Source: Deltaproteobacteria bacterium (GTDB taxonomy: Bacteria; Desulfobacterota; Syntrophia; Syntrophales; Smithellaceae). Taken from it: a stretch of DNA of 62,013 nucleotides. Under the pieces are notes generated by a model. That model did not search any database and had not been told where the DNA came from. It saw only the letters and a program-made list of their open reading frames with translations. Numbering within the stretch: the first letter of the stretch is position 1; the number at the start of each line of letters is the position of its first letter. Position numbers and translations under genes: made by a program. The stretch spans positions 1 through 62,013 of the forward strand of contig JAJFTS010000149.1 of the NCBI GenBank assembly GCA_021372815.1. The letters run 5' to 3'. Below are positions 1,807 through 61,620 of the stretch, piece by piece.

Positions 1807-2364
1807 TTATTTTTTACGAATCCCGGGAATAATGATGGGCGTCTTTTCTTTGTACGCCGTATAAACTTTGCCGAAGCGCTTCTCCAGTTCCGGTTCTTCA
1901 ATACATTTAAATTCGAGAATGCTCATCAAAACAAACAACGGCGTCATGACGAAGGTGAGTGTTATCGATCCGGAGAAAATGCCGATCCCGGCCATCACCA
2001 GGAAAAGGCCCGTCATCATCGGATTTCTTGAATAAGCGTAGGGACCGTCGGTAACCAATTTCGGCGGAGGATTTATCGGAACGGGAGTCCCTTTTGTTTT
2101 AAAGAATTTCCCCGCAGACCACAACCAGAGGAGCGTCCCCCCAATGATAAAGGGGAGGGAAAGCGCAATGCTCAAGGGTTGGGCGATAAATTCCGGCAAT
2201 CCGAGGAAACGATCAAGATAAAAAGATGCCACAATCAACAGCAATACAATGCAGAAGAAAATAAAGCCGACCAGCGGGGTAAGAATCATGCGCATTCTTT
2301 TGGTGCCCGTTGCCGTCTTATAGATAAGGTTTATGATCGATTCCCGAAACGATTTCATGTGCAC
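1807..2364 (-). CDS. Isoprenylcysteine carboxyl / phospholipid methyltransferase family membrane protein
   Basis: Multi-TM protein with GPYAYSRNPMMTG, the RNPMY-type motif of the ICMT/PEMT family. Confidence 0.7.
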   Translation of the reverse strand: MHMKSFRESIINLIYKTATGTKRMRMILTPLVGFIFFCIVLLLIVASFYLDRFLGLPEFIAQPLSIALSLPFIIGGTLLWLWSAGKFFKTKGTPVPINPPPKLVTDGPYAYSRNPMMTGLFLVMAGIGIFSGSITLTFVMTPLFVLMSILEFKCIEEPELEKRFGKVYTAYKEKTPIIIPGIRKK

Positions 2365-9349: not shown

Positions 9350-10153
9350 TCAATAGGTGTAGCTAATGGCGGCGCCGGCGGAAAATCTGTCCGCATATTG
9401 CCCTTCAATATTCAGACGGAATCCTTTGGCAAGAGGAATATCCGCTCCCGCGAATCCTCCGGCAGTCGATTTGTTTTCGACGGAAACATTTCCGGCCGCG
9501 TATTCCAGACCGGGAACAGCCGCAGACAAAGACATCTTCGCTTCCGAATAATAGAGATAGGGACCGGCATACAGTCTCATGCCGCAGGACAGTGTGGCCT
9601 GCAGGCCAACACCGAAATTCACATCCCAGAGATTTTTCACTTTCAGATCGGCGACAAAAGGAACGCCGCCACTGATTCCGGAGACATTGTCCGTGAAATT
9701 GCTGAAATAATAAGTCCCCTGCACAAAAGCGCCCATGCCGAATGTTTCATTGAACGGATAAAATATCTTGGCGCCCAGGGTACCGGAAAATTTCCAGTTT
9801 TCTTCAAAATCATCTTTGCCGGTCGCGGTGGAGGGGTCTGCGGAGCTGAAAACGTCGAATATTTTCAAGTCCGATACGCCGAGACGCGCGTATATTTCCC
9901 AGATGTTTCCGGCGCCGTAGGCCGCCTGAGAATAAATCATGTTTTGTCTGATTTTATGATCCGCGCCGTTTTGGCAGGTATCTTCATGATACCAGTAACC
10001 GACGGCGGTGTTGATTCCACCCGCTTCCTTCGAAACGGTTTGCGGCGCACCGAACAGCCCCGCCGCCGCGACTATCCGCGGACAAACGGCAAAAATCAAC
10101 AAAAGCACCAGCGTGATAAGCAGAAAATTTTTTGCGAAAATTTCTTTCTTCAT
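9350..10153 (-). CDS. Outer-membrane beta-barrel protein (porin-family/OmpW-like size)
   Basis: Signal peptide, alternating amphipathic beta-strand pattern, aromatic C-terminus (ISYTY). Its start abuts the mlaA stop (10153/10154). Confidence 0.6.
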   Translation of the reverse strand: MKKEIFAKNFLLITLVLLLIFAVCPRIVAAAGLFGAPQTVSKEAGGINTAVGYWYHEDTCQNGADHKIRQNMIYSQAAYGAGNIWEIYARLGVSDLKIFDVFSSADPSTATGKDDFEENWKFSGTLGAKIFYPFNETFGMGAFVQGTYYFSNFTDNVSGISGGVPFVADLKVKNLWDVNFGVGLQATLSCGMRLYAGPYLYYSEAKMSLSAAVPGLEYAAGNVSVENKSTAGGFAGADIPLAKGFRLNIEGQYADRFSAGAAISYTY

Positions 10154-11203
10154 TTAATTTTCCTTCTTCGGCACGGCCGGCTCACGCTCCGGTGATTGCG
10201 CTTCCTCGGATGCGGACTTCATCATCTTCGCTTTTCTTGCCTTCACCGCCTTCAGACGGTATTGAATGTAGGCGTCGCGAAAAGCCACGTAGGGATCAAC
10301 AGCCGCGTTTTTCAGGGACTCATAATCGCCGATTCTCAACGATGTGGCATTAACTTCCTGCCAAACCCTCACACCCAGCCAGTCGTACCACGGATCAATG
10401 TACGAGACGGGATACAGAAAATAATCTCCGGCAATGCTGACAGAGTCGCGCGGACTGGAAGGCCCCAGCACCGGCCAGACAATATAAAAGCCCTGCCCGA
10501 TGCCCCAGACGCCCAGGGTCTGCCCCAGATCGGTATCCTGCATTTGCAGATCCAGCTCCTTGCCGGAAGAAGGATCCAGCAGTCCCCCGATGCCCCAGAC
10601 GGTATTGACCGTAAAACGTCCGGCTTCCGTGGCCGCGCCGCTGAAATCGGCCTGCAGCAGGCAACTGAGGAAACGGGCGGGAAATCCCAGGTTGGAAAAG
10701 AAATTTTTTACGCTGATCCGGGCGGGTTCGGGAACGACTGCTTTGTAGCCCTGGGCGACAGGTTTGAGCGCCCAGAAATAAAGCTTGTCGTTGAACTGAT
10801 GCATGGCCCGGTTTACGGGTTCCAGAGGGTCGGCAATTTCCGCTTTCTCTTCCCCAACAGCCTTGCCGGTATCATTGTCCGAAACTTCATCTTCCTTGTA
10901 TTCTTCTTCCAGGGGATTTGCCGCGTCGGCTGCGGTTTGTACCGGAACATGAGCGGATGACGAAGCAAGTTCAACCGGCCCGGACGAAGACGCGGACAGA
11001 GCACCACCGGTGACGCCGGCGCTATGCGCGTACCCCGCCGTCAGAAAGATAAACAACACAATCACGGGTATGGACCCCAAAGCTTGCTTTGGGGTATTAT
11101 ACCCTCCGCTGTGCGGGATTGTTCGACTTACAAATTTCAATGCACGTCGTTTTTGAAATTTGAGTCTCACAATAATTTTAATGTAAAATTTCATATAGCC
11201 CAA
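10154..11203 (-). CDS. mlaA: MlaA/VacJ family lipid-transport outer-membrane protein (start codon uncertain)
   Basis: DPLEPVNRAMHQFNDKLYFWALKPVAQGYKAVVPEPARISVKNFFSNLGFP...TVWGIGGLLDP is a typical MlaA core. The first ~35 codons of the tracked ORF are made of a dispersed hairpin repeat. Alternative in-frame starts: ATG 11194, GTG 11170, TTG near 11087. Confidence 0.8.
   Translation of the reverse strand: MGYMKFYIKIIVRLKFQKRRALKFVSRTIPHSGGYNTPKQALGSIPVIVLFIFLTAGYAHSAGVTGGALSASSSGPVELASSSAHVPVQTAADAANPLEEEYKEDEVSDNDTGKAVGEEKAEIADPLEPVNRAMHQFNDKLYFWALKPVAQGYKAVVPEPARISVKNFFSNLGFPARFLSCLLQADFSGAATEAGRFTVNTVWGIGGLLDPSSGKELDLQMQDTDLGQTLGVWGIGQGFYIVWPVLGPSSPRDSVSIAGDYFLYPVSYIDPWYDWLGVRVWQEVNATSLRIGDYESLKNAAVDPYVAFRDAYIQYRLKAVKARKAKMMKSASEEAQSPEREPAVPKKEN
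11075..11094. repeat. 20-nt palindrome CCCCAAAGCTTGCTTTGGGG
   Basis: Two 9-nt arms are exact reverse complements around a central TT. Lies inside the mlaA 5-prime region. Confidence 0.7.
11115..11170 (-). repeat. Dispersed hairpin element E, copy A
   Basis: Minus strand reads GTGAGACTCAAATTTCAA-aaacgacgtgca-TTGAAATTTGTAAGTCGAACAATCCC, with a 10-bp perfect stem. Related copies at 19730, 19848 and 44077. Confidence 0.8.
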
Positions 11204-11281: not shown

Positions 11282-11875
11282 TTATTGCGCCTTAACCTTT
11301 TTTCGCAGGATCTCCAGCAACTGATCGGGAGTATTCTTGGCCAGGATGTCGCTGAACTGCGTGCGGTAATTCTGAACCAGACTCACATTTTCCACGACAA
11401 CATCATATACTTTCCATTTGCCGTCTTTTAAAATCATCCGGTAAAAAATGGGAATTTCTTTGGAAGAGGTGATGATTTTCGACTGAATTTCCGCCTGATT
11501 GCCGGAAAGCATGTTTTCTTGATAGAAATTAACTTTTTCGTTGGAATAGTCCAGAATTTTATCGATGTATGCCTTTTCCAGAATCTGCTCAAAAAGCTTC
11601 ACAAATTCCGCTCGCTGAGCGGGATTGAAATTGTTCCAGTTGCGCGCCAGGGTGCGTTTGGAAAATTCCACTTCATCGAACATGTCCTTATAGATAACCC
11701 GGAGCTTTTCTTTCTTGATCTCCTTGGCTGCCGGACTTTTCAGCTTGGGATCCTTCAGCACGTCCAATACTCTCCTGACGGAAGCCTCCGCCGTGGTCAT
11801 CGGCACTCCGGCATAGGCCGGAACGGATAATATAAAAATGATCAATAGGCCCCATAATACAATTTGTTTTTTCAT
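11282..11875 (-). CDS. mlaC: MlaC/Ttg2D family phospholipid-binding periplasmic protein
   Basis: Signal peptide, about 200 aa. FSKRTLARNWNNFNPAQRAEFVKLFEQILEKAYIDKI is the typical Tgt2/MlaC motif region. Confidence 0.8.
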   Translation of the reverse strand: MKKQIVLWGLLIIFILSVPAYAGVPMTTAEASVRRVLDVLKDPKLKSPAAKEIKKEKLRVIYKDMFDEVEFSKRTLARNWNNFNPAQRAEFVKLFEQILEKAYIDKILDYSNEKVNFYQENMLSGNQAEIQSKIITSSKEIPIFYRMILKDGKWKVYDVVVENVSLVQNYRTQFSDILAKNTPDQLLEILRKKVKAQ

Positions 11876-11897: not shown

Positions 11898-12389
11898 CTA
11901 TTCTTTTACCTTTTCTGTTCCTGTATTTTTTCCCTCGTCTTTTTTCACTTCGCCGAAGGCATATTTGCTGATGATCTGCTCGATATCCACCGCCGCCTGC
12001 GTATCGGTGATCACTCCTTTATTGGCCAGCAGGTTGCCGCCGCCGCCCGGATCGATACTGAGATATTTATCGCCGATCAGTCCTTCCGTTTTAATGGAGG
12101 CGATGGCGTCATCATAGATTTTAATACCGTTGTTGATTTTCATTTCCACAACCGCTTTCAGGTTGTCCTGGTCTATGGCAATTTTTTCCACGCGTCCGAC
12201 CTCAATACCTAATATATTCACCGGACTGCCGATTCTCAAGCCGGCAACGGTCGTAAAATTTGCAATGAGCGTATAGGATTTATCCCCCAGAAAATCAACC
12301 TTGCCCAGTTTCACAGTCATATATCCGACGCAGATCAGACCCAGAATGACAAAGATACCGACGATTGTCTCCATGTTGTATTTTTTCAT
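11898..12389 (-). CDS. mlaD: MlaD (MCE-domain) protein
   Basis: N-terminal TM segment followed by an MCE domain (GLRIGSPVNILGIEVGRVEKI). Confidence 0.85.
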   Translation of the reverse strand: MKKYNMETIVGIFVILGLICVGYMTVKLGKVDFLGDKSYTLIANFTTVAGLRIGSPVNILGIEVGRVEKIAIDQDNLKAVVEMKINNGIKIYDDAIASIKTEGLIGDKYLSIDPGGGGNLLANKGVITDTQAAVDIEQIISKYAFGEVKKDEGKNTGTEKVKE

Positions 12390-13634
12390 TTATTCACTCC
12401 CCGCGGCACAACTTAGCCGCCCGATTTCTTTTTGTTGAGATTTGGCTAAAGTGACAACAGAATCTATATCGGTTGTTGACCGACCCTGGGCAATGCCGGC
12501 CATAATCATCAATTCGACCGGCCCCCCCGGGGACAATTTGCAGGCGCTCTCCTGGATGCTCTGCAGAATCTGTTTTTGAAAATCATGAACAAAATTTTTC
12601 ATGATGCTTTCCGTTTCGGATAAATTTGAATAGGGAAGCATCGTAATAATCTCATTGGTATTCCGGCGGGTGGAAAAGCCGCCGATGGCGCCGAAATGTT
12701 TATCAATATATAATCCCATGCCCCGAATAGCCTCCTGCGCCGCATCATGTCCGACACTGCTGGCAATTCCGTTGAGTCCCTGCAGGCTGAAAACCACCAG
12801 GCAGTAAGATTCCTCCTCCGGTCTCCTTTTCATTTGAAGGTGATTGAGCATTTCGAACTGGCGTTTGGAATAAAGGCCGGTCAGTTCTTTTTGCAGCACT
12901 TCTAAACTGTGGATGACTTCCTCTTTGAACGGATGATCGAAATTCTCCATTTCTTCCGGCGTTCCCTGAAATACAATCTGATGATTATAAAGAGAAAGAA
13001 TCCGGTTGGAGATAAAATAGACATCCGGGATTTCATGGCTGACGAGGATGGCTGTAAAGTTAAATTTTTTCTGATACTGGGCTATCATGCTTAAAATAGC
13101 ATTTTTCCGTACGGGATCCTGACCGGTTGTCGGTTCGTCAAACAAAACGATCTTGGGATCGGTAATCAGGGCGCGCGCCAGCGCGGCTCTTTTCTGCATG
13201 CCTCCGGAAAGTTCCGAAGGGTACCGGTGTGCCGACTCGGTCAGTTCCGTCTGCTCGATTCTGGCCATCACCCGGCGATCAATTTCCGCTTTCTTCAAAT
13301 TGGTGGATTCCCGGAGCGGCAGCGCGATATTTTCGTAAACGGTCATGGAATCAAACAAAGCATTCCCCTGAAACATGTAGCTTATCTGAGCGAAAGCCGC
13401 GGTAATTTCGGACTTGGTCATGGAAGAAATCGGTTTGCCGCGAAACAGAATAGCCCCTTCGTCGGGCTTCATCAATCCGATGATATGTTTGAGCATGACG
13501 CTTTTACCCGAACCGGAAAGGCCGATAATTGTGGTAACTTCTCCTTCGTAGATCTGCAAATTAACACGGTCCAGCACGGTTCGTCGGCCGAAGCGCTTGG
13601 TAACATCTTTGAATTCAATAAGTGGCGTTTCCAT
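12390..13634 (-). CDS. mlaF: MlaF-type ABC ATPase fused to a C-terminal degenerate GGDEF-like domain
   Basis: N-terminal 250 aa carry Walker A GLSGSGKS, signature LSGGMQKR and Walker B VLFDEPTTGQD. The C-terminal ~165 aa align to GGDEF landmarks: LTGLYSKRQF; VVFSLQGLNGIASSVGHDAAQEAIRGM; RRNTNEIITMLP in place of R.GGDEF. Confidence 0.8.
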   Translation of the reverse strand: METPLIEFKDVTKRFGRRTVLDRVNLQIYEGEVTTIIGLSGSGKSVMLKHIIGLMKPDEGAILFRGKPISSMTKSEITAAFAQISYMFQGNALFDSMTVYENIALPLRESTNLKKAEIDRRVMARIEQTELTESAHRYPSELSGGMQKRAALARALITDPKIVLFDEPTTGQDPVRKNAILSMIAQYQKKFNFTAILVSHEIPDVYFISNRILSLYNHQIVFQGTPEEMENFDHPFKEEVIHSLEVLQKELTGLYSKRQFEMLNHLQMKRRPEEESYCLVVFSLQGLNGIASSVGHDAAQEAIRGMGLYIDKHFGAIGGFSTRRNTNEIITMLPYSNLSETESIMKNFVHDFQKQILQSIQESACKLSPGGPVELMIMAGIAQGRSTTDIDSVVTLAKSQQKEIGRLSCAAGSE

Positions 13635-13642
13635 GAATTTCT

Positions 13643-14491
13643 CTACATTAGCAGTGAAGTTACGACATAATCCGAAACCAGGATCAGCACGCAGGACGTC
13701 ACCACAGCCGACGTCGTGGCCAGGCCGACAGCCTGGGCGCCGTGACTATCCCTGCGCATGTGCGCAAAATAACCCTGGTAACAACAAACAGTGGAAACAA
13801 TCACCGCAAAAACAATCGCTTTCACAATGCCATTGGTGATATCGCTCATGACGACATAGGCCTGAACGCTGTGCGAATAGACGCCGGGATTCAAACCCAA
13901 CAGCAGAACTCCCGAAATATAGCCGCCCGCAATGCCGATCAGGTCAAACATCGCCGTTAACAAAGGAAAACTGATGATGGCGGCGGTAATTTTGGGGCTC
14001 ACCAGGTATCGCAGCGGATTGATCTGCATGGTATGCAACGCGTCGATCTGTTCGCTGATGCGTTGAATACCGATTTCCGCCGTTATGGCCGAACCGGCCC
14101 GCGCCGTAATCATGATGGCGGTGAGCACCGGGCCCAGTTCCATGATCAGCGAAAGAGACACCAGCGAACCCACCGCGCCCTGCGCCCCGAATTGAACCAG
14201 AGCGTGATAGGATTGCAGACCAAGCACCATGCCGGTAAACAAGCTCACCAGCATGATAATGGTCATCGACCTTGCTCCGATATAATAAACCTGCTTCACA
14301 ACCTTGGAGAACTGTTTGGCCCGTAAGGCATTCCCCAGCGCCATGATCAGGAAAATCGTTGCCTTTCCTAAAACATTCACCCAACGGACAACCGTTTCCC
14401 CGACAAAGGCGAAAGGCCTGGTCAGGAGCGTACCCGAACCGGATTCATCGTCGGCTTGCGAACCGTGTTGATTGTTTTCGTTCTGAGCCAT
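13643..14491 (-). CDS. mlaE: MlaE ABC permease
   Basis: Multi-TM protein of MlaE/Ttg2B type (RSMTIIMLVSLFTGMVLGLQS...LHTMQINPLRYLVSPK). Confidence 0.9.
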   Translation of the reverse strand: MAQNENNQHGSQADDESGSGTLLTRPFAFVGETVVRWVNVLGKATIFLIMALGNALRAKQFSKVVKQVYYIGARSMTIIMLVSLFTGMVLGLQSYHALVQFGAQGAVGSLVSLSLIMELGPVLTAIMITARAGSAITAEIGIQRISEQIDALHTMQINPLRYLVSPKITAAIISFPLLTAMFDLIGIAGGYISGVLLLGLNPGVYSHSVQAYVVMSDITNGIVKAIVFAVIVSTVCCYQGYFAHMRRDSHGAQAVGLATTSAVVTSCVLILVSDYVVTSLLM

Positions 14492-45452: not shown

Positions 45453-45815
45453 TTATTTTTTATTGTACTCCAGTTTCCACGAAACGTAATCCCTAAGCTT
45501 TCTGACGGCATCGCCGGGCGTATTAACGAATTGCACGCCCGCCTCATAGGATTCGTCTTCGTAAATAATTTTCACCCATTTTACTTTTCCAATGACGGTT
45601 ATCATCTCTCGCACTGTGTTCAATTTCATCTCCATCATCAGAAGAGTATCAACAGGTAAGTATATATGGGCCTGTATTCGGGCTCCGGAAGCTGAAATAT
45701 CCTTGCTGCGGTTATGGATTACTTTTTCCTCGGGGAGATCGTTTCCTCCGGAAACGACGGTTATGGTCACTTCGTTTTCCTCCTGCAGCCTGGGAGCTCT
45801 CCTTCTTTCATCCAT
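45453..45815 (-). CDS. PilZ domain protein (c-di-GMP receptor type)
   Basis: RRRAPR (RxxxR) and DISASG (D.S..G) motifs at canonical spacing. Confidence 0.75.
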   Translation of the reverse strand: MDERRRAPRLQEENEVTITVVSGGNDLPEEKVIHNRSKDISASGARIQAHIYLPVDTLLMMEMKLNTVREMITVIGKVKWVKIIYEDESYEAGVQFVNTPGDAVRKLRDYVSWKLEYNKK

Positions 45816-53920: not shown

Positions 53921-54091
53921 AAAGATTAAGGAAATCTTTGTCACTTAATAACAATCATGAGTAGCAAAACTTTTTCCAATATACAAGGTTCTTCCGGGTG
54001 AATCGTTTCATCATTATGCCTGGGATTCAGTCCGCATGGGGGGAAAATTTATAATTTGCGGCGGCTGATATTTTTTGTTATTCCATGCATT

Positions 54092-54748
54092 ATGGATAAA
54101 GATATTCTTGTATTGAGCAGGCAGGCGTTGCAAATGAATATCGAGCTGAGCGATCAACAGCTGGCTCAATTTGATACCTATCAGAACGAGCTTCTGCAAT
54201 GGAATGCCAAAACCAATTTAATTTCGGAAAATTCTTCACAGGAAATTATCACCCGCCATTTTCTGGATTCATTGACGGCCCTGCAATTTATTCAAAAGCC
54301 CGATGCCCTGGTGATTGATATCGGTTGCGGCGCCGGCTTTCCGGGCATTCCCTTAAAAATAGCGCGGCCCTCTTTGGAAATTTATCTGCTGGAAGCCAAT
54401 CGTAAGAAAGTTTCTTTTTTAAAACATATTACCCGTCTCCTGAATTTATCCCCCGTGTCTATTCTTCACGACCGGGTTGAAAATATTATCAAAAACGATT
54501 CTCTGAAGGAAAAATTTGATATTTTAATTTCCCGCGCTACATTCAAATTAGACGAGCTTCTTTTGCTCGGTGATTTTTTTTTAAAGCCAAAAGGTGAAAT
54601 GATCGCTTTAAAAGGCCCTCATGTCGGACAGGAAATTAAGCGGTGTTTAGAAGCCGGAAATCGTTATAAAATATCTCAATTGATTCAACATGATATAAAG
54701 GCTGAATTTCTGGCCGCTCCGCGAAAAATTATTATCGGAAAAAAATAA
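54092..54748 (+). CDS. rsmG: 16S rRNA (guanine527-N7)-methyltransferase RsmG
   Basis: Start re-picked at MDKDIL. WNAKTNLIS...RHFLDSL...DIGCGAGFPGIPLKI. Confidence 0.9.
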   Translation: MDKDILVLSRQALQMNIELSDQQLAQFDTYQNELLQWNAKTNLISENSSQEIITRHFLDSLTALQFIQKPDALVIDIGCGAGFPGIPLKIARPSLEIYLLEANRKKVSFLKHITRLLNLSPVSILHDRVENIIKNDSLKEKFDILISRATFKLDELLLLGDFFLKPKGEMIALKGPHVGQEIKRCLEAGNRYKISQLIQHDIKAEFLAAPRKIIIGKK

Positions 54749-54833
54749 AAAAATCTTCTAAAAAGCTTTTTTTTGTGCTAGTGCTATCGCTGGTTCTTGC
54801 AAAAGAATTTATTTTTTTACGCTCAATAAAATA

Positions 54834-55601
54834 ATGAATAAAATTATATGTATAGCAAACCAAAAAGGTGGTGTAGGTAAAACCACCACGGCGATAAATT
54901 TATCTGCTTCCCTGGCGGCGGCAGAAAAAAAAACTTTGCTCATTGACGGCGATTCTCAGGGCAATTCTACAAGCGGTATTGGAACGGACAGAAACGCTTT
55001 TCAGGCGGCTAATTTATACCACGCCATGATCGGCCATGTGCCTCTTAAAGATGTGATTATTCACACGGCCATACCCCATCTGGACGTCGTGCCGTCCAAT
55101 CAGGATCTTATAGGAATTGAGTTTGAGTTTATCGGTCTGGAAGAAAAAGAAAAGCGGCTGAAGAATTTGCTGACTTCTCTGGACAGTCATTATGATTTCA
55201 TCATCATTGATTGCCCTCCGTCGCTGGGCATGATGACCGTCAATGCGCTTGCCGCTTCCGACTATTTGATTGTTCCCTTGCAGTGCGAATATTTCGCGAT
55301 GGAGGGATTGGGATATTTGCTCAACACCGTCAAGCTGGTGAAAGCGCAATTAAATCCCAACCTGGCTTTAGGCGGCATTTTACTGACGATGTTCGATCAG
55401 CGCAATTTATTATCTCATCGCGTATCGGATGATGTGCGCAAACATTTCGGCGATAAGGTTTTTAAAACGGTTATTCCGCGCAACGTGCGACTTTCGGAAT
55501 GTCCCAGTCACGGGTTGCCCATTATTCTTTACGATATTAAATCGCGCGGAGCTTTGGCTTATATGGAAATGGCCAGGGAAATCATTCAAGGGGGATTGTA
55601 A
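54834..55601 (+). CDS. parA: Chromosome partitioning ATPase ParA/Soj
   Basis: Deviant Walker A NQKGGVGKTTT. IIIDCPPSLG. Confidence 0.93.
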   Translation: MNKIICIANQKGGVGKTTTAINLSASLAAAEKKTLLIDGDSQGNSTSGIGTDRNAFQAANLYHAMIGHVPLKDVIIHTAIPHLDVVPSNQDLIGIEFEFIGLEEKEKRLKNLLTSLDSHYDFIIIDCPPSLGMMTVNALAASDYLIVPLQCEYFAMEGLGYLLNTVKLVKAQLNPNLALGGILLTMFDQRNLLSHRVSDDVRKHFGDKVFKTVIPRNVRLSECPSHGLPIILYDIKSRGALAYMEMAREIIQGGL

Positions 55602-56456
55602 ATGGCACAAAAAAATGTGCTGGGAAAGGGACTCGGTGCAATATTTCCGGATTTACTAAACGAATCAGACAAGAAAAAACAATTTTCCTGCGGAATTGAA
55701 GAGCTTCGTCCCAATCGCTATCAGCCCCGGAAAAATTTTAACGACGACCGGCAAAAGGATTTGATCGCTTCCGTAAAAAGCAGCGGCATTATCCAGCCGA
55801 TCATTGTCCGCAAGGCGGAAGATGGTTATGAAATTATCGCCGGCGAACGACGATGGCGGGCAGCTCAGGCTGCGGGTCTGAAAGATGTGCCCATCGTCAT
55901 CCGCGAAGCGACCGACATGGAAGCCGCGGAAATTTCTCTTATTGAAAATATTCAACGGGAAGAACTCAATCCGCTGGAAGAAGCGGATGCCTATGTAACG
56001 CTCGCGGAAAAATTTCAACTTTCCCAGGAAGAAATTTCTCAACGCGTGGGAAAGGATCGCTCCACGATAGCCAATACCATCCGTCTTTTAAAACTGCCGG
56101 CTCAGGTCAAAACCGCGCTGACGGAAAAGGTCATTTCTGCAGGCCATGCCCGTTGTTTACTGGCTTGTTCGTCACTTGAAGATCAAATCGCGGCGCTTCA
56201 TTTAATTTTAAAAAAAGATCTAAATGTTCGGGAAACAGAACGCTTCATTCAAAAAACTAAAAATCAGCCGGCAGAAAAAAAACCCGTCGCCAAGAAAGAC
56301 CGGTTTCTGAATGATTTGGAAAAGGCCCTGTCAGCCAAATTGCTGGCGAAGGTGCAAATTAACGGTTCGGATAAAAAAGGCTTGATTGAAATCAGATATA
56401 CATCTATGGATGAACTGAACCGATTATCGGGTTTTATCCTGGATGAATTATCATAA
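55602..56456 (+). CDS. parB: Chromosome partitioning protein ParB/Spo0J
   Basis: IQPIIVRK...YEIIAGERRWRAA (ParB box), HTH region STIANTIRLLKLP. Confidence 0.93.
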   Translation: MAQKNVLGKGLGAIFPDLLNESDKKKQFSCGIEELRPNRYQPRKNFNDDRQKDLIASVKSSGIIQPIIVRKAEDGYEIIAGERRWRAAQAAGLKDVPIVIREATDMEAAEISLIENIQREELNPLEEADAYVTLAEKFQLSQEEISQRVGKDRSTIANTIRLLKLPAQVKTALTEKVISAGHARCLLACSSLEDQIAALHLILKKDLNVRETERFIQKTKNQPAEKKPVAKKDRFLNDLEKALSAKLLAKVQINGSDKKGLIEIRYTSMDELNRLSGFILDELS

Positions 56457-56468
56457 ATTAATGTTTCC

Positions 56469-56496
56469 AAGCTTATCCACAGATGTGGATAAGCTT
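56469..56496. promoter_or_regulatory. Inverted pair of perfect DnaA boxes in a 28-nt palindrome
   Basis: AAGCTTATCCACAGATGTGGATAAGCTT. TTATCCACA at 56473-56481 and TGTGGATAA at 56484-56492, 24 nt before the dnaA ATG. Confidence 0.8.
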
Positions 56497-56515
56497 GTTT
56501 ATAAAGGTTGTTATA

Positions 56516-57865
56516 ATGGACGCGTTTTGGGACAAAACCAGTAAAATTATTCAGGAAAAAATTAGTAAGCAAAATTTTGACACGTGGATAAAACCGATCA
56601 AAATTGTTGCCATGGAAGACCAGCGTGTGCAGCTGGCAGTGCCCAATAAATTTTTCAAAGACTGGCTTTTGGATAACTATTGCTCAACCATTAAACAATC
56701 ACTGAAAGATGCGGCAGGGCTGGAGGTGGATATTGATTTTGTTTTATCTAAAAATCAAGAAAAACAATCGGAACCGGCTACCAAGCAAAATGCTCACTCT
56801 AAAAGTGCCTCAGCCCCCATGCACTCCAAAAGTAAAAGTTTTTCTTTCCTGAATGAAAACTATAATTTTGACCGGTTCGTTGTCGGTTCGTGTAATCAGT
56901 TTGCCCATGCCGCTTCCATTGCCGTTGCCAAACAACCGGCCAAAAATTACAATCCTCTTTTTATATATGGCGGATCCGGACTGGGTAAAACTCATCTGCT
57001 TAATGCCATCGGACTGCTGGCCTCTTCCATGCATCCGACATTGAACATCATGTATGTTTCCGCGGAAGAATTCATGAATGAAATGATCAATTCCATTCGT
57101 TACGACCGGATGCCCAAGTTTAGGGAAAAATATCGCAATATCAGTTGTCTGTTAATTGACGATATTCATTTTCTGGCGGGAAAAGACAGGACTCAGGAAG
57201 AATTTTTCCACACTTTCAACACCCTGCACGACTCCGGAAAACAGATTGTTGTCACCAGTGACAAATTTCCAAAAGATATCCCGAATTTGGAGAGCAGGCT
57301 GCGTTCCCGTTTTGAATGGGGGCTGATTGCCGATATTCAACCACCGGAAATAGAGACAAAAATTGCCATTATTGAAAAAAAGATACAGGAAAATAAAATA
57401 GAATTACCCAATAATGTCATTCATTACATCGCCTCACACGTTGAATCCAATATCCGTGAGCTGGAAGGATTTTTGGTCAGAATAGGCGCTTATTCATCTT
57501 TAACAGGAAGGGAAATAGACCTGGATTTGGTAAAGGAAGTATTACGGAGTCTGGTGAAATATAATAAAAAAGGTGAAATCAGTATTGAAGAAATCATGAA
57601 GGTTATTTCGGGAAAATTAAATATAAAAATATCGGATATTAAAGCTCATAATAAGAATAAAAATATTGTCTTTGCACGCCAGTTGGTGATGTATTTATCA
57701 AGAAAGCATACCAACTATTCTTTCCCGGATATAGGACAAAAAGTAGGTGGACGTGATCACTCCACAGTGATTTATGCTTATAATAAAGTATTAAACAACA
57801 TTAAAACGGATGTGAAGTTAAAAAACTTAATTCAGGAAATTGAGGATATTTTAATCAACAAATAA
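56516..57865 (+). CDS. dnaA: Chromosomal replication initiator DnaA
   Basis: Start re-picked at MDAFWDKTSKIIQEK. GGSGLGKTHLL, LLIDDIHFLAGK. C-terminal DNA-binding VFARQLVMYLSRKHTNYSFPDIGQKVGGRDHSTVIYA. Confidence 0.97.
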   Translation: MDAFWDKTSKIIQEKISKQNFDTWIKPIKIVAMEDQRVQLAVPNKFFKDWLLDNYCSTIKQSLKDAAGLEVDIDFVLSKNQEKQSEPATKQNAHSKSASAPMHSKSKSFSFLNENYNFDRFVVGSCNQFAHAASIAVAKQPAKNYNPLFIYGGSGLGKTHLLNAIGLLASSMHPTLNIMYVSAEEFMNEMINSIRYDRMPKFREKYRNISCLLIDDIHFLAGKDRTQEEFFHTFNTLHDSGKQIVVTSDKFPKDIPNLESRLRSRFEWGLIADIQPPEIETKIAIIEKKIQENKIELPNNVIHYIASHVESNIRELEGFLVRIGAYSSLTGREIDLDLVKEVLRSLVKYNKKGEISIEEIMKVISGKLNIKISDIKAHNKNKNIVFARQLVMYLSRKHTNYSFPDIGQKVGGRDHSTVIYAYNKVLNNIKTDVKLKNLIQEIEDILINK

Positions 57866-58028
57866 TTAACTTTTTGTGTCAAATTTATAAACAGGCAAAG
57901 ATTGATTTAAGGTTTTAATTTTTTTTAAGAAATATTATTAATCAACATATCAACAGGGATTACTATTAATACTATTTTTTTATATAAGGAAAAAATCAAA
58001 AGAAGAATAATAAAGACAAGGAGGAAGT
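57866..58028. promoter_or_regulatory. Very AT-rich dnaA-dnaN spacer (candidate DNA-unwinding element / oriC part)
   Basis: About 80% A+T by eye. Degenerate DnaA-box-like 9-mers TTATAAACA (57885-57893) and ATATCAACA (57947-57955). Confidence 0.45.
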
Positions 58029-59138
58029 ATGGAATTTAAAATCAATAGAGAAACCTTTCTTGACGGTATTCAAAAAACATTAGGTATTGTTGAGAAAAAA
58101 ACGACAATACCTATTTTGAATAATATTCTTATCAAAGCCGATGCCAATAAAATTAAAATTATAGCTACCGACAGAGAGATAATTTTAATTTCCGATTATG
58201 AGGCGGAAGTATTGGAAAAAGGTGAAATTACGATTTCAGCTAAAAAAATGTATGAGATGATCCGGGAAATACAAGGAGAAGTAATAAATTTTATTCAAAA
58301 AAACAATATTGTCAAAATATCAGCCCAAAGAGCTTTTTATAAAATACCCGGATTGCCGGCAGATGATTTTCCCAGTATTGCCGATGATCAGGATATCCAA
58401 CTTTTTAAGGTTCAGGGAAGTGTCATGAAGGATTTGATCAGTAAGACGTCATTTGCCATGGCGACTGATGAAACAAGAAAAAACTTGAACGGCGTTTTAT
58501 TGGAAGCGGGTATGGATGGGGCTAATCATTTATTAAGAATGGTTGCCACAGATGGACATCGTCTGGCCATGGCTAAAGGTTTCACATCCGAAGCCACTTT
58601 CAAGACGGGAAAAGGAATTATCATTCCCCGTAAAGGATTAATGGAAATCAAAAAGGTTATTGATGAGAATGAAGAAGTTAAAATTGGTTTAAATAAGAAT
58701 ATGTTTGTCGTGAAAACGGAGAATACTCTTTTGAAAGTCAGCCTGGTGGATGCAGATTACCCTGACTATAAAAAAGTTATTCCAACCGAAAAAGGAATAA
58801 CTGTTACGCTGGAGAAGGAATATTTTCTGCATGCGTTAAGAAGAATGAGTGTTGTTTCTTCGGAAAGATACGGTGGTGTGATTCTTTCATTTTCCGAAGG
58901 TAAATTAACATTGAATTCTACCAATCTTGATGTTGGTGAAGCAACAGAAGAAATAGATATTATTTACAGTGGAGAGGTTATCGATAGCGGCTTTAATGTC
59001 AATTATTTAATTGATGCGATCTCCGGGGCTAATAAAGACCAGATTGTATTTGAAGTCGGTATGGGATTAAAACCTTCCGTGATTAAACAGGCGGATGATG
59101 ACAATTATTTGTGCATTATTATGCCTTTAAAAATATAG
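58029..59138 (+). CDS. dnaN: DNA polymerase III beta sliding clamp
   Basis: 369 aa. ILNNILIKA...ATDGHRLA...DYPDYKKVIP. Confidence 0.95.
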   Translation: MEFKINRETFLDGIQKTLGIVEKKTTIPILNNILIKADANKIKIIATDREIILISDYEAEVLEKGEITISAKKMYEMIREIQGEVINFIQKNNIVKISAQRAFYKIPGLPADDFPSIADDQDIQLFKVQGSVMKDLISKTSFAMATDETRKNLNGVLLEAGMDGANHLLRMVATDGHRLAMAKGFTSEATFKTGKGIIIPRKGLMEIKKVIDENEEVKIGLNKNMFVVKTENTLLKVSLVDADYPDYKKVIPTEKGITVTLEKEYFLHALRRMSVVSSERYGGVILSFSEGKLTLNSTNLDVGEATEEIDIIYSGEVIDSGFNVNYLIDAISGANKDQIVFEVGMGLKPSVIKQADDDNYLCIIMPLKI

Positions 59139-59156
59139 CAGCAGAGAGGAAGTTGA

Positions 59157-61571
<2,415 letters not shown>

Positions 61572-61573
61572 TT

Positions 61574-61620
61574 AGCAAGTTAGAATTTGTTTCTTTAGAA
61601 AACAAATTCGTAAACTTGCT
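61574..61620. repeat. 47-nt interrupted hairpin after gyrB
   Basis: AGCAAGTT..AATTTGTT (61574-61591) pairs with AACAAATT....AACTTGCT (61601-61620): two 8-bp stems with an internal loop. Confidence 0.65.

Follow-up and report, generated by a model that had tools for sequence, protein, structure and literature searches.

We found that the MlaF-type ATPase encoded in the window, by which we mean the whole stretch of 62,013 nucleotides that was analysed, carries a C-terminal domain of predicted GGDEF fold in which the catalytic residues have been replaced. The domain stands where the MlaF protein of E. coli has a short C-terminal extension, it evolves under purifying selection, and it is a candidate for a built-in assembly and regulatory domain of the Mla transporter.

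A complete Mla operon encodes an extended MlaF protein

The fusion gene is located on the reverse strand in a compact operon that encodes the components listed below in gene order, with the segments of the fusion protein given under its gene.

13643..14491 (-), mlaE, permease of 282 aa (Pfam MlaE, 254.9 bits; NCBIfam TIGR00056, 237 bits, over the cutoff)
12390..13634 (-), mlaF fusion gene, 414 aa, ABC ATPase core plus C-terminal degenerate domain of predicted GGDEF fold
12915..13625 (-), MlaF-type ABC nucleotide-binding core, residues 4-240 (phmmer, BLASTP, NCBIfam, motifs)
12879..12926 (-), predicted amphipathic linker or 'stalk' helix, residues 237-252 (both AlphaFold models, hydrophobic pattern)
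12405..12887 (-), degenerate domain of predicted GGDEF fold, residues ~250-410 (Pfam, AlphaFold, Foldseek, dN/dS)
11898..12389 (-), mlaD, short E. coli-type MCE protein of 163 aa (TIGR04430, 147.5 bits, cutoff 135; Pfam MlaD)
11282..11875 (-), mlaC, periplasmic lipid carrier of 197 aa (Pfam MlaC, 155 bits)
10154..11203 (-), mlaA homologue, ORF of 349 aa with uncertain start position (Pfam MlaA, 228.9 bits)
9350..10153 (-), last gene of the operon, secreted protein of 267 aa, probable outer-membrane beta-barrel (signal peptide, terminal Tyr)

A preliminary description of this DNA had listed these genes and a 414-aa MlaF at 12390-13634, and the open reading frame, its coordinates and the gene list were all borne out by the reading of the frames and by Pfam and NCBIfam, as were the assignments of the mlaE, mlaD, mlaC and mlaA neighbours. 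The stop codon of mlaE is located 8 nt ahead of the mlaF start, while the distances between mlaF and mlaD and between mlaA and the last gene are 0 nt. The order mlaE, fused mlaF, mlaD, mlaC, mlaA and the gene for the 267-aa protein is compact and fixed across the Syntrophales: of 87 loci, 85 had mlaE upstream of the fusion gene, and mlaD, mlaC and mlaA were present in 87, 84 and 74, respectively. The first four genes were constant also in distant carriers, where they were followed by mlaA (Desulfocurvibacter africanus), by a pair of genes for TamB-like and Omp85 proteins, or by an unrelated gene.

The last gene, which directly follows mlaA in 68 of the 87 loci, had been described as an outer-membrane barrel. 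Barrel-like features were indeed present, in that the protein has a signal peptide and that all 43 orthologues end with a tyrosine, and one orthologue matched OMP_b-brl (E = 3e-4), but the copy in the window gave no match to Pfam or NCBIfam families and only noise against the PDB sequences.

The N-terminal part of the fusion protein contains an ABC_tran domain (residues 21-170, 121.6 bits in Pfam) in which we could read the Walker A (GLSGSGKS), signature (LSGGMQKR) and Walker B (IVLFDEPT) motifs, a GQDP D-loop and H200. The top matches of this half in the PDB, both by sequence and by fold, were the MlaF proteins of Acinetobacter baumannii and E. coli; in the phmmer search, residues 12-248 of A. 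baumannii MlaF paired with residues 4-240 of the window protein (E = 7e-54), and BLASTP aligned residues 5-235 with residues 8-238 of MlaF from E. coli K-12 without gaps over 231 aa at 37% identity. The top NCBIfam model for the ABC half was likewise MlaF (PRK11831), which was trained on gammaproteobacterial MlaF. The score of the fusion protein was 195.8 bits and the cutoff for the MlaF equivalog is 441 bits, so we consider the protein to be a divergent MlaF orthologue rather than an equivalog-level match. Taken by its sequence and gene context, the product of the fusion gene is the predicted ATPase of a complete Mla phospholipid-transport operon.

The C-terminal domain is predicted to have a GGDEF fold

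The claim that the last part of the protein resembles GGDEF domains held up in two of the checks that the preliminary description had proposed, a search with Pfam models and a structural model followed by a fold search. In the search with the full protein, which also recovered ABC_tran, PF00990 (GGDEF) was found at residues 250-370 with 27.7 bits (gathering cutoff 23.8, E = 2.6e-6), and the score was 30.2 bits when the C-terminal 183 aa were searched alone. All of the 24 family members tested matched PF00990 and there were no competing families. An AlphaFold model of residues 232-414, built from an alignment of 24 family sequences, had a mean pLDDT of 89.2 and a pTM of 0.84. With this model as query, all of the top 50 Foldseek matches in the PDB were GGDEF domains (probability 1.0, TM 0.55-0.67, identity 14-21%), with no unrelated fold among these 50. 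The best match was 6ttr, a construct of DgcB that contains a coiled coil plus the GGDEF domain, to which 179 columns were aligned, the N-terminal helix included. Finally, a family profile searched against 1.84 billion representative proteins reached canonical multidomain GGDEF proteins at E ~1e-12, which argues that the homology is real and not a chance resemblance of motifs. The GGDEF fold of the C-terminal domain is hence confirmed at the level of a predicted structure.

Of four motif correspondences that had been pointed out from the sequence, three were reproduced in the HMMER alignment to PleD, namely LTGLYSKRQF with LTGLHNRRYM, FSLQGLNGIASSVGHDAAQEAI with IDIDFFKKINDTFGHDIGDEVL, and RRNTNEI with RYGGEEF. 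The fourth, ELMIMAGIAQG, is located beyond the HMMER and Pfam alignments, although the segment was modelled as a beta-strand (residues 373-385) in which G380 is near-invariant.

In the full-length AlphaFold model, the ABC core and the junction were of low confidence (pLDDT <50 at residues 161-236), probably as an effect of a shallow alignment, and no inter-domain geometry was taken from it. A fold search with the full-length model retrieved ABC ATPases only, among them MetN chains that aligned over ~365 columns.

Catalytic, guanine-binding and I-site residues are replaced

To locate the residues of diguanylate cyclases in the fused domain, we mapped the reference residues of PleD (Asp327, Lys332, Asn335, Asp344, Glu/Asp370, Lys442 and Arg446; PMC6629876) onto the window protein through the HMMER alignment and counted the residues at the corresponding positions in 279 full-length members pooled from three sequence searches. 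In the reference list, D327 and E370 are metal ligands, K332 is catalytic and N335 and D344 recognize the guanine (PMC6629876). The window protein has S283, N288, A291, Q300 and N327 in place of D327, K332, N335, D344 and E370, and it reads NTNEI where PleD has GGEEF, and GAIG where the RxxD motif of the I-site is expected.

These replacements were general in the family. The GG(D/E)EF motif was present in none of the 279 members. The position of D327 was never occupied by Asp but by Thr or Ser in 231 members, that of K332 mostly by Asp, Glu or Asn, and that of D344 by Gln in 252, while the position of N335 was variable. At the position of E370 we counted Asn in 167 members and acidic residues in a minority (Asp in 52 and Glu in 11). 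The I-site arginine (position of R359) was present in only 9 members, the site reading GxxG, and an RxxD motif in register was found in none of the 279, the sole RxxD strings being ~8 residues out of register. The more divergent members were equally degenerate, with no intermediate that retained an intact GGDEF motif among them. With the motif, the metal-binding acids, the guanine contacts and the I-site all absent from the 279 members, the domain is predicted to be catalytically dead, as had been proposed, and not to synthesize c-di-GMP; nor is it likely to read GTP or c-di-GMP through a canonical A-site or I-site.

The conserved residues of the domain were Q300 (90%), R323, G380, A397 and C409, and its best-conserved part was the region of the old active site, with R323 and the new, uncharged residues Q300 and N327/E328. 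The arginine that precedes the motif in PleD (R366), equivalent to R323, was kept in 278 of the 279 members (100%), and the position of G339 in PleD was kept in 271. Cys409, present in 96%, is specific to the family and has no canonical counterpart, and the equivalents of K442 and R446 were basic in about 65-70% of the members. Among 42 non-redundant representatives, only R323, G295, G380, A397, C409 and some fold residues were conserved in more than 80%.

Several of the members are labelled 'diguanylate cyclase' in the NCBI records. The inconsistency of this naming can be attributed to the NCBIfam GGDEF model, against which the window protein scored 24.6 bits, just short of the cutoff of 37.4 bits. 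Since the catalytic residues are missing throughout the family, we consider the label to be wrong, and the records that name MlaF fusions diguanylate cyclases to represent a systematic annotation error.

The domain is placed at the site of the E. coli MlaF extension

The end of the ABC core is joined to the GGDEF-like domain by the stalk segment, which was a helix in both AlphaFold models. In the 279 members, positions 236, 240, 241, 244, 247, 251 and 254 were hydrophobic in 72-100%, and the spacing of 3-4 residues is of the kind typical of a paired stalk. In E. coli, each MlaF ends in a C-terminal extension of ~25 aa that embraces the partner MlaF and reaches in between MlaF and MlaB at their interface, and MlaB together with this 'handshake' extension is needed for a stable and active MlaF on MlaE (PMC7367683). 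The authors of that study compared the arrangement of the extension and MlaB with the dimeric regulatory domains of MetNI (PMC7367683). In the gap-free alignment, the start of the E. coli extension maps to about residue 242 of the window protein, where the helix at residues 237-252 enters the GGDEF-like domain, and the alignment thus places this domain at the site occupied by the C-terminal extension in the MlaF of E. coli.

Taxonomic spread and selective constraints

When one genome was scanned for each GTDB species, at least 282 species were found to encode relatives of the domain. Of these 282 species, the best 80 were almost all from the Syntrophales (Smithella, Smithellaceae and Syntrophaceae), and within the domain the window protein was closest to Smithella, with 97% identity to the L001 locus and 88% to L002. 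A profile of divergent members retrieved ABC_tran plus GGDEF proteins of 403-433 aa from Thermodesulfobacteria, Thermodesulfatator, Desulfobacterales and the cultured Desulfocurvibacter africanus. The fusion is thereby present in at least three classes of the Thermodesulfobacteriota, with members of Syntrophia, Desulfovibrionia and Thermodesulfobacteria included.

An intact gene encoding 395-440 aa was found in 83 of the 86 related loci. In 552 pairwise comparisons, the C-terminal domain had a median dN/dS value of 0.248, compared with 0.076 in the ABC core, and the mean pairwise identities were 36% and 68%, respectively. Indels in the domain were rare, with a median of 1 gap per 161 columns. 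The dN/dS value of about 0.25, the near-absence of indels and the intact genes indicate that the domain is a functional part of the protein that has been maintained by purifying selection.

Lack of MlaB in the operon and its surroundings

The operon had been described as lacking mlaB, and we indeed found no STAS gene in the operon, nor did any of 10 small ORFs examined in the window encode a STAS protein. The compact operon was likewise free of STAS genes at the 87 loci, and so were six carrier neighbourhoods annotated with Pfam, out to a distance of 8-10 kb. A tblastn search with E. coli MlaB against the window and the 86 other loci gave no match, which is a weak test since MlaB sequences from different genera share less than 20% identity (PMC7367683). 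The C-terminal domain itself matched no STAS fold or family but the GGDEF fold, and it can therefore at most be a functional analogue of MlaB and not a member of its family.

The absence of MlaB had been taken as a special feature of this operon, an argument that is weakened by a survey of 1083 genomes in which MlaA, MlaB and MlaC occurred sparsely and for the most part in Proteobacteria, the ancestral core being MlaEFD (PMC10665443). The lack of MlaB is by this survey the rule outside Proteobacteria rather than an anomaly. As most diderm lineages have MlaEFD without MlaB and without an extra domain (PMC10665443), the need for a substitute is not obvious. What is unusual here is that the 'proteobacterial' parts, namely a short MlaD, MlaC and MlaA, are present without MlaB. 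That the fused domain replaces MlaB is a plausible hypothesis.

Putative role of the fused domain

We give about an even chance to the explanation that the C-terminal domain is a dimeric assembly and regulatory domain that takes on the tasks which in E. coli fall to MlaB and the handshake extension. The short C-terminal tail of MlaF would have been swapped for a dead GGDEF-fold domain by way of a short amphipathic helix. Since an ABC transporter of this type contains two MlaF subunits and GGDEF domains pair through stalk helices, the two C-terminal domains may pair beneath the nucleotide-binding domains (NBDs) through their stalk helices, as in cyclases, and form a dimeric module at this site. 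Such a module would keep the two MlaF subunits joined on MlaE and may also set their ATPase activity, as a built-in clasp and regulator. The equivalent function is divided in E. coli between MlaB, a STAS protein, and the handshake extension of MlaF, and in other ABC importers it belongs to C-terminal regulatory domains, such as the C2 domain of MetN and the regulatory domain of MalK.

The conservation of the old active site is compatible with a ligand-binding pocket as well as with a structural clasp. We think it unlikely that the domain is gated by a ligand or by redox conditions, such that the ATPase activity of MlaF is adjusted when the remodelled pocket or Cys409 responds to the redox state, an alarmone, a metabolite or a nucleotide other than a guanine nucleotide, akin to the trans-inhibition through MetN C2; a parallel is provided by the Opu ATPases, on whose CBS domains c-di-AMP acts. 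The clustering of the top-conserved positions at the old active site with its new residues, the mostly basic K442 and R446 equivalents and the presence of Cys409 all speak for such a gate, but the metal-binding acids and the base-recognition residues have both been lost, several of the positions conserved in more than 80% of the 42 representatives are fold determinants of every GGDEF domain, and no result of the analysis suggested a ligand. An extension of this idea, that the GGDEF fold was repurposed phylum-wide as a regulatory subunit of Mla which replaces the handshake tail and MlaB and gates the ATPase on a cytoplasmic signal through a metal-free pocket (Q300/R323/N327-E328 and the basic residues) or Cys409, is likewise unlikely in our judgement. 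If true, it would represent a direct cytoplasmic input into the homeostasis of outer-membrane lipids, and the GGDEF fold would gain a new class of output. A receptor for c-di-GMP or GTP that couples lipid asymmetry to the state of the second messenger, which was the role originally suggested, seems improbable to us because all of the canonical contacts are missing. The degenerate GGDEF domains of PelD and PopA do serve as c-di-GMP receptors, there is a weak NCBIfam similarity to the GGDEF region of the LapD receptor, and the organism encodes a PilZ protein at 45453-45815, in agreement with the preliminary description, that scored 41 bits and has intact RxxxR and DxSxxG motifs. However, degenerate GGDEF domains of the receptor type use the RxxD I-site, which here reads GxxG and is in register in none of the 279 members, and the guanine contacts N335 and D344 as well as the metal ligands have all been replaced.

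The remaining explanations are a vestigial domain and an active cyclase. The loss of all catalytic residues and the evolutionary rate of the domain, which is about 3-fold higher than that of the ABC core (dN/dS 0.25 versus 0.076, identity 36% versus 68%), could be taken to mean that a former cyclase domain persists as a passive appendage. We rejected such a vestigial domain, which we regard as very improbable, on the dN/dS evidence: a value of 0.25 represents clear purifying selection, and furthermore the length has been kept with almost no indels across a class-level divergence and at least 282 species, and the family-specific residues Q300 and C409 are conserved at 90% or more. As for an active diguanylate cyclase fused to MlaF, the database names of several members and the Pfam GGDEF score above the cutoff would favour it, but neither the GG(D/E)EF motif nor the D327 ligand was present in any of the 279 members, the position of E370 is acidic only in the minority counted above, and the NCBIfam model remained below its cutoff; the residues effectively refute this explanation at the sequence level, and its probability is close to nil.

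Comparison with known systems

Full-text literature searches for an architecture combining MlaF or ABC ATPases with a GGDEF domain, degenerate or not, retrieved no description or discussion of it but incidental co-mentions only, while the combination of ABC_tran and GGDEF can be read from automatic protein names and from Pfam annotations computed beforehand. The cytoplasmic regulation of Mla transporters is understood for the proteobacterial MlaF-MlaB pair only, and a large phylum of anaerobes, with sulfate reducers and syntrophs and including the cultured D. africanus, has a fused domain where the tail that docks on MlaB would be located. The fusion thereby offers a natural experiment on the purpose of the extension and MlaB module, that is, stabilization of the dimer versus input of a signal, and it extends to an ABC ATPase the range of proteins in which selection maintains a dead GGDEF domain. 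The interest would be greater if lipid transport were shown to be gated by the domain in response to a signal.

The MlaF proteins of E. coli and A. baumannii, which act with MlaB in the MlaFEDB complex (PDB 6xbd, 6xgy and 7d06), resemble the window protein in the gap-free ABC core (36-38% identity), the Mla-type LSGGM signature, the GQDP D-loop and the partners MlaE, short MlaD, MlaC and MlaA. In contrast to the E. coli system, the operon in the window has no MlaB or other STAS gene and its ATPase has a GGDEF-fold domain of ~165 aa instead of the handshake extension of ~25 aa; the gene orders also differ, being E-F-D-C-A-barrel in the window and F-E-D-C-B in E. coli.

In broader terms, the fusion joins two themes known from other proteins, the regulatory domain at the C-terminus of an ABC ATPase and the degenerate GGDEF domain retained in a non-catalytic role. 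With MetN C2, the regulatory domain of MalK, and ModC, CysA and GlcV it shares an extra globular domain fused right after the NBD. In these ATPases the extra domain dimerizes below the NBDs and controls their closure, whereas for the MlaF fusion we infer a dimerization, and its domain has the GGDEF fold rather than being an ACT/NIL or TOBE domain. The second theme is represented by PelD, PopA, LapD, FimX and CsrD, in which the GGDEF fold has been kept and the catalytic motif lost, and which are retained as non-enzymatic receptors or scaffolds. These are similar to the MlaF fusion in the kept fold, the lost motif and the selection that acts on the domain, but none of them is an ABC ATPase, and PelD and PopA bind c-di-GMP through the RxxD motif of the I-site, which the MlaF fusion domain does not have. 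The best structural matches, DgcB, WspR, PleD, DosC and SiaD, share with the fusion an N-terminal helix that leads into the LTGL start of the domain, although the identities are only 14-21% and the catalytic, guanine-binding and I-site residues have all been replaced. In these stalk-regulated cyclases a sensor domain is located upstream of the helix, whereas in the MlaF fusion this place is taken by the ABC NBD.

The C-terminal domain of the fusion protein and its annotation

Several members of the fusion family, in which an MlaF ATPase core is followed by a degenerate GGDEF-fold domain, are recorded at NCBI under the name "diguanylate cyclase" (P0002, P0011, P0051, P0448 and P0549). This naming is a systematic over-annotation, since the catalytic motif, the metal ligands and the guanine ligands are absent from every member of the family. 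The domain has a conserved residue of its own, located as follows.

12405-12410 (-), Cys409, on the final beta-strand of the GGDEF-like domain

Cys409 is without counterpart in canonical GGDEF domains and is conserved in 267 of the 279 full-length members and in 95% of the non-redundant representatives; it may serve as a redox, metal or inter-subunit contact. Only one protein with a closely similar C-terminal domain was found whose N-terminus did not align as an ABC ATPase, namely the 356-aa hypothetical protein MDB4444272.1 (P0342), which contains the segments GHEAAQ..., GRETINEV and ILAGIGQG. This could represent either a different domain context or an artefact of the assembly or gene call.

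Other genes in the window

Three further features, outside the Mla operon, are listed here.

1807-2364 (-), membrane protein of 185 aa with a phospholipid methyltransferase (PEMT) domain (49 bits)
45453-45815 (-), stand-alone PilZ protein of 120 aa with RxxxR and DxSxxG motifs
about 54000-61600 (+), run of ParA-, ParB-, DnaA-, DnaN- and GyrB-like genes, recognized from N-terminal sequences

The PilZ protein named in the preliminary description was borne out, with both c-di-GMP-binding motifs present as RRAPR and DISASG. The PEMT-domain gene is a further lipid-related gene, situated about 7 kb away from the Mla operon on its downstream (3') side. From the run of ParA- to GyrB-like genes, judged by sequence motifs only, such as KGGVGKTT in the ParA-like gene, the window probably covers the region around the chromosomal origin of replication.

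The distal part of the Mla operon

In one divergent carrier (L085:7180-17245), the genes mlaE, fused mlaF, mlaD and mlaC are followed directly not by mlaA but by genes for a TamB/AsmA-like protein of 1578 aa and an Omp85/POTRA protein, such that two kinds of lipid-transport machinery are joined in one cluster. The window has two genes at this end of the operon.

10154-11203 (-), MlaA homologue, a long ORF (349 aa) when read from a TTG codon, which may not be the true start
9350-10153 (-), 267-aa protein, directly after mlaA with zero gap

The MlaA homologue has an Ala/Ser/Glu-rich segment N-terminal of the MlaA domain and a signal-like hydrophobic stretch. Because no cysteine follows this stretch, the protein may not be a lipoprotein, unlike MlaA of E. 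coli, which is one.

The gene for the 267-aa protein is kept in the same place in 68 of 87 related loci. The protein carries a signal peptide; its C-terminus reads ...S.G.A.TY.Y, and the terminal Tyr is present in 43 of 43 orthologues. Searches of Pfam, NCBIfam and PDB gave no sequence match for it, and OMP_b-brl matched one orthologue weakly. It probably represents an undescribed family of outer-membrane barrels that partners MlaA, a role like that of OmpC/F, the partners of MlaA in E. coli.
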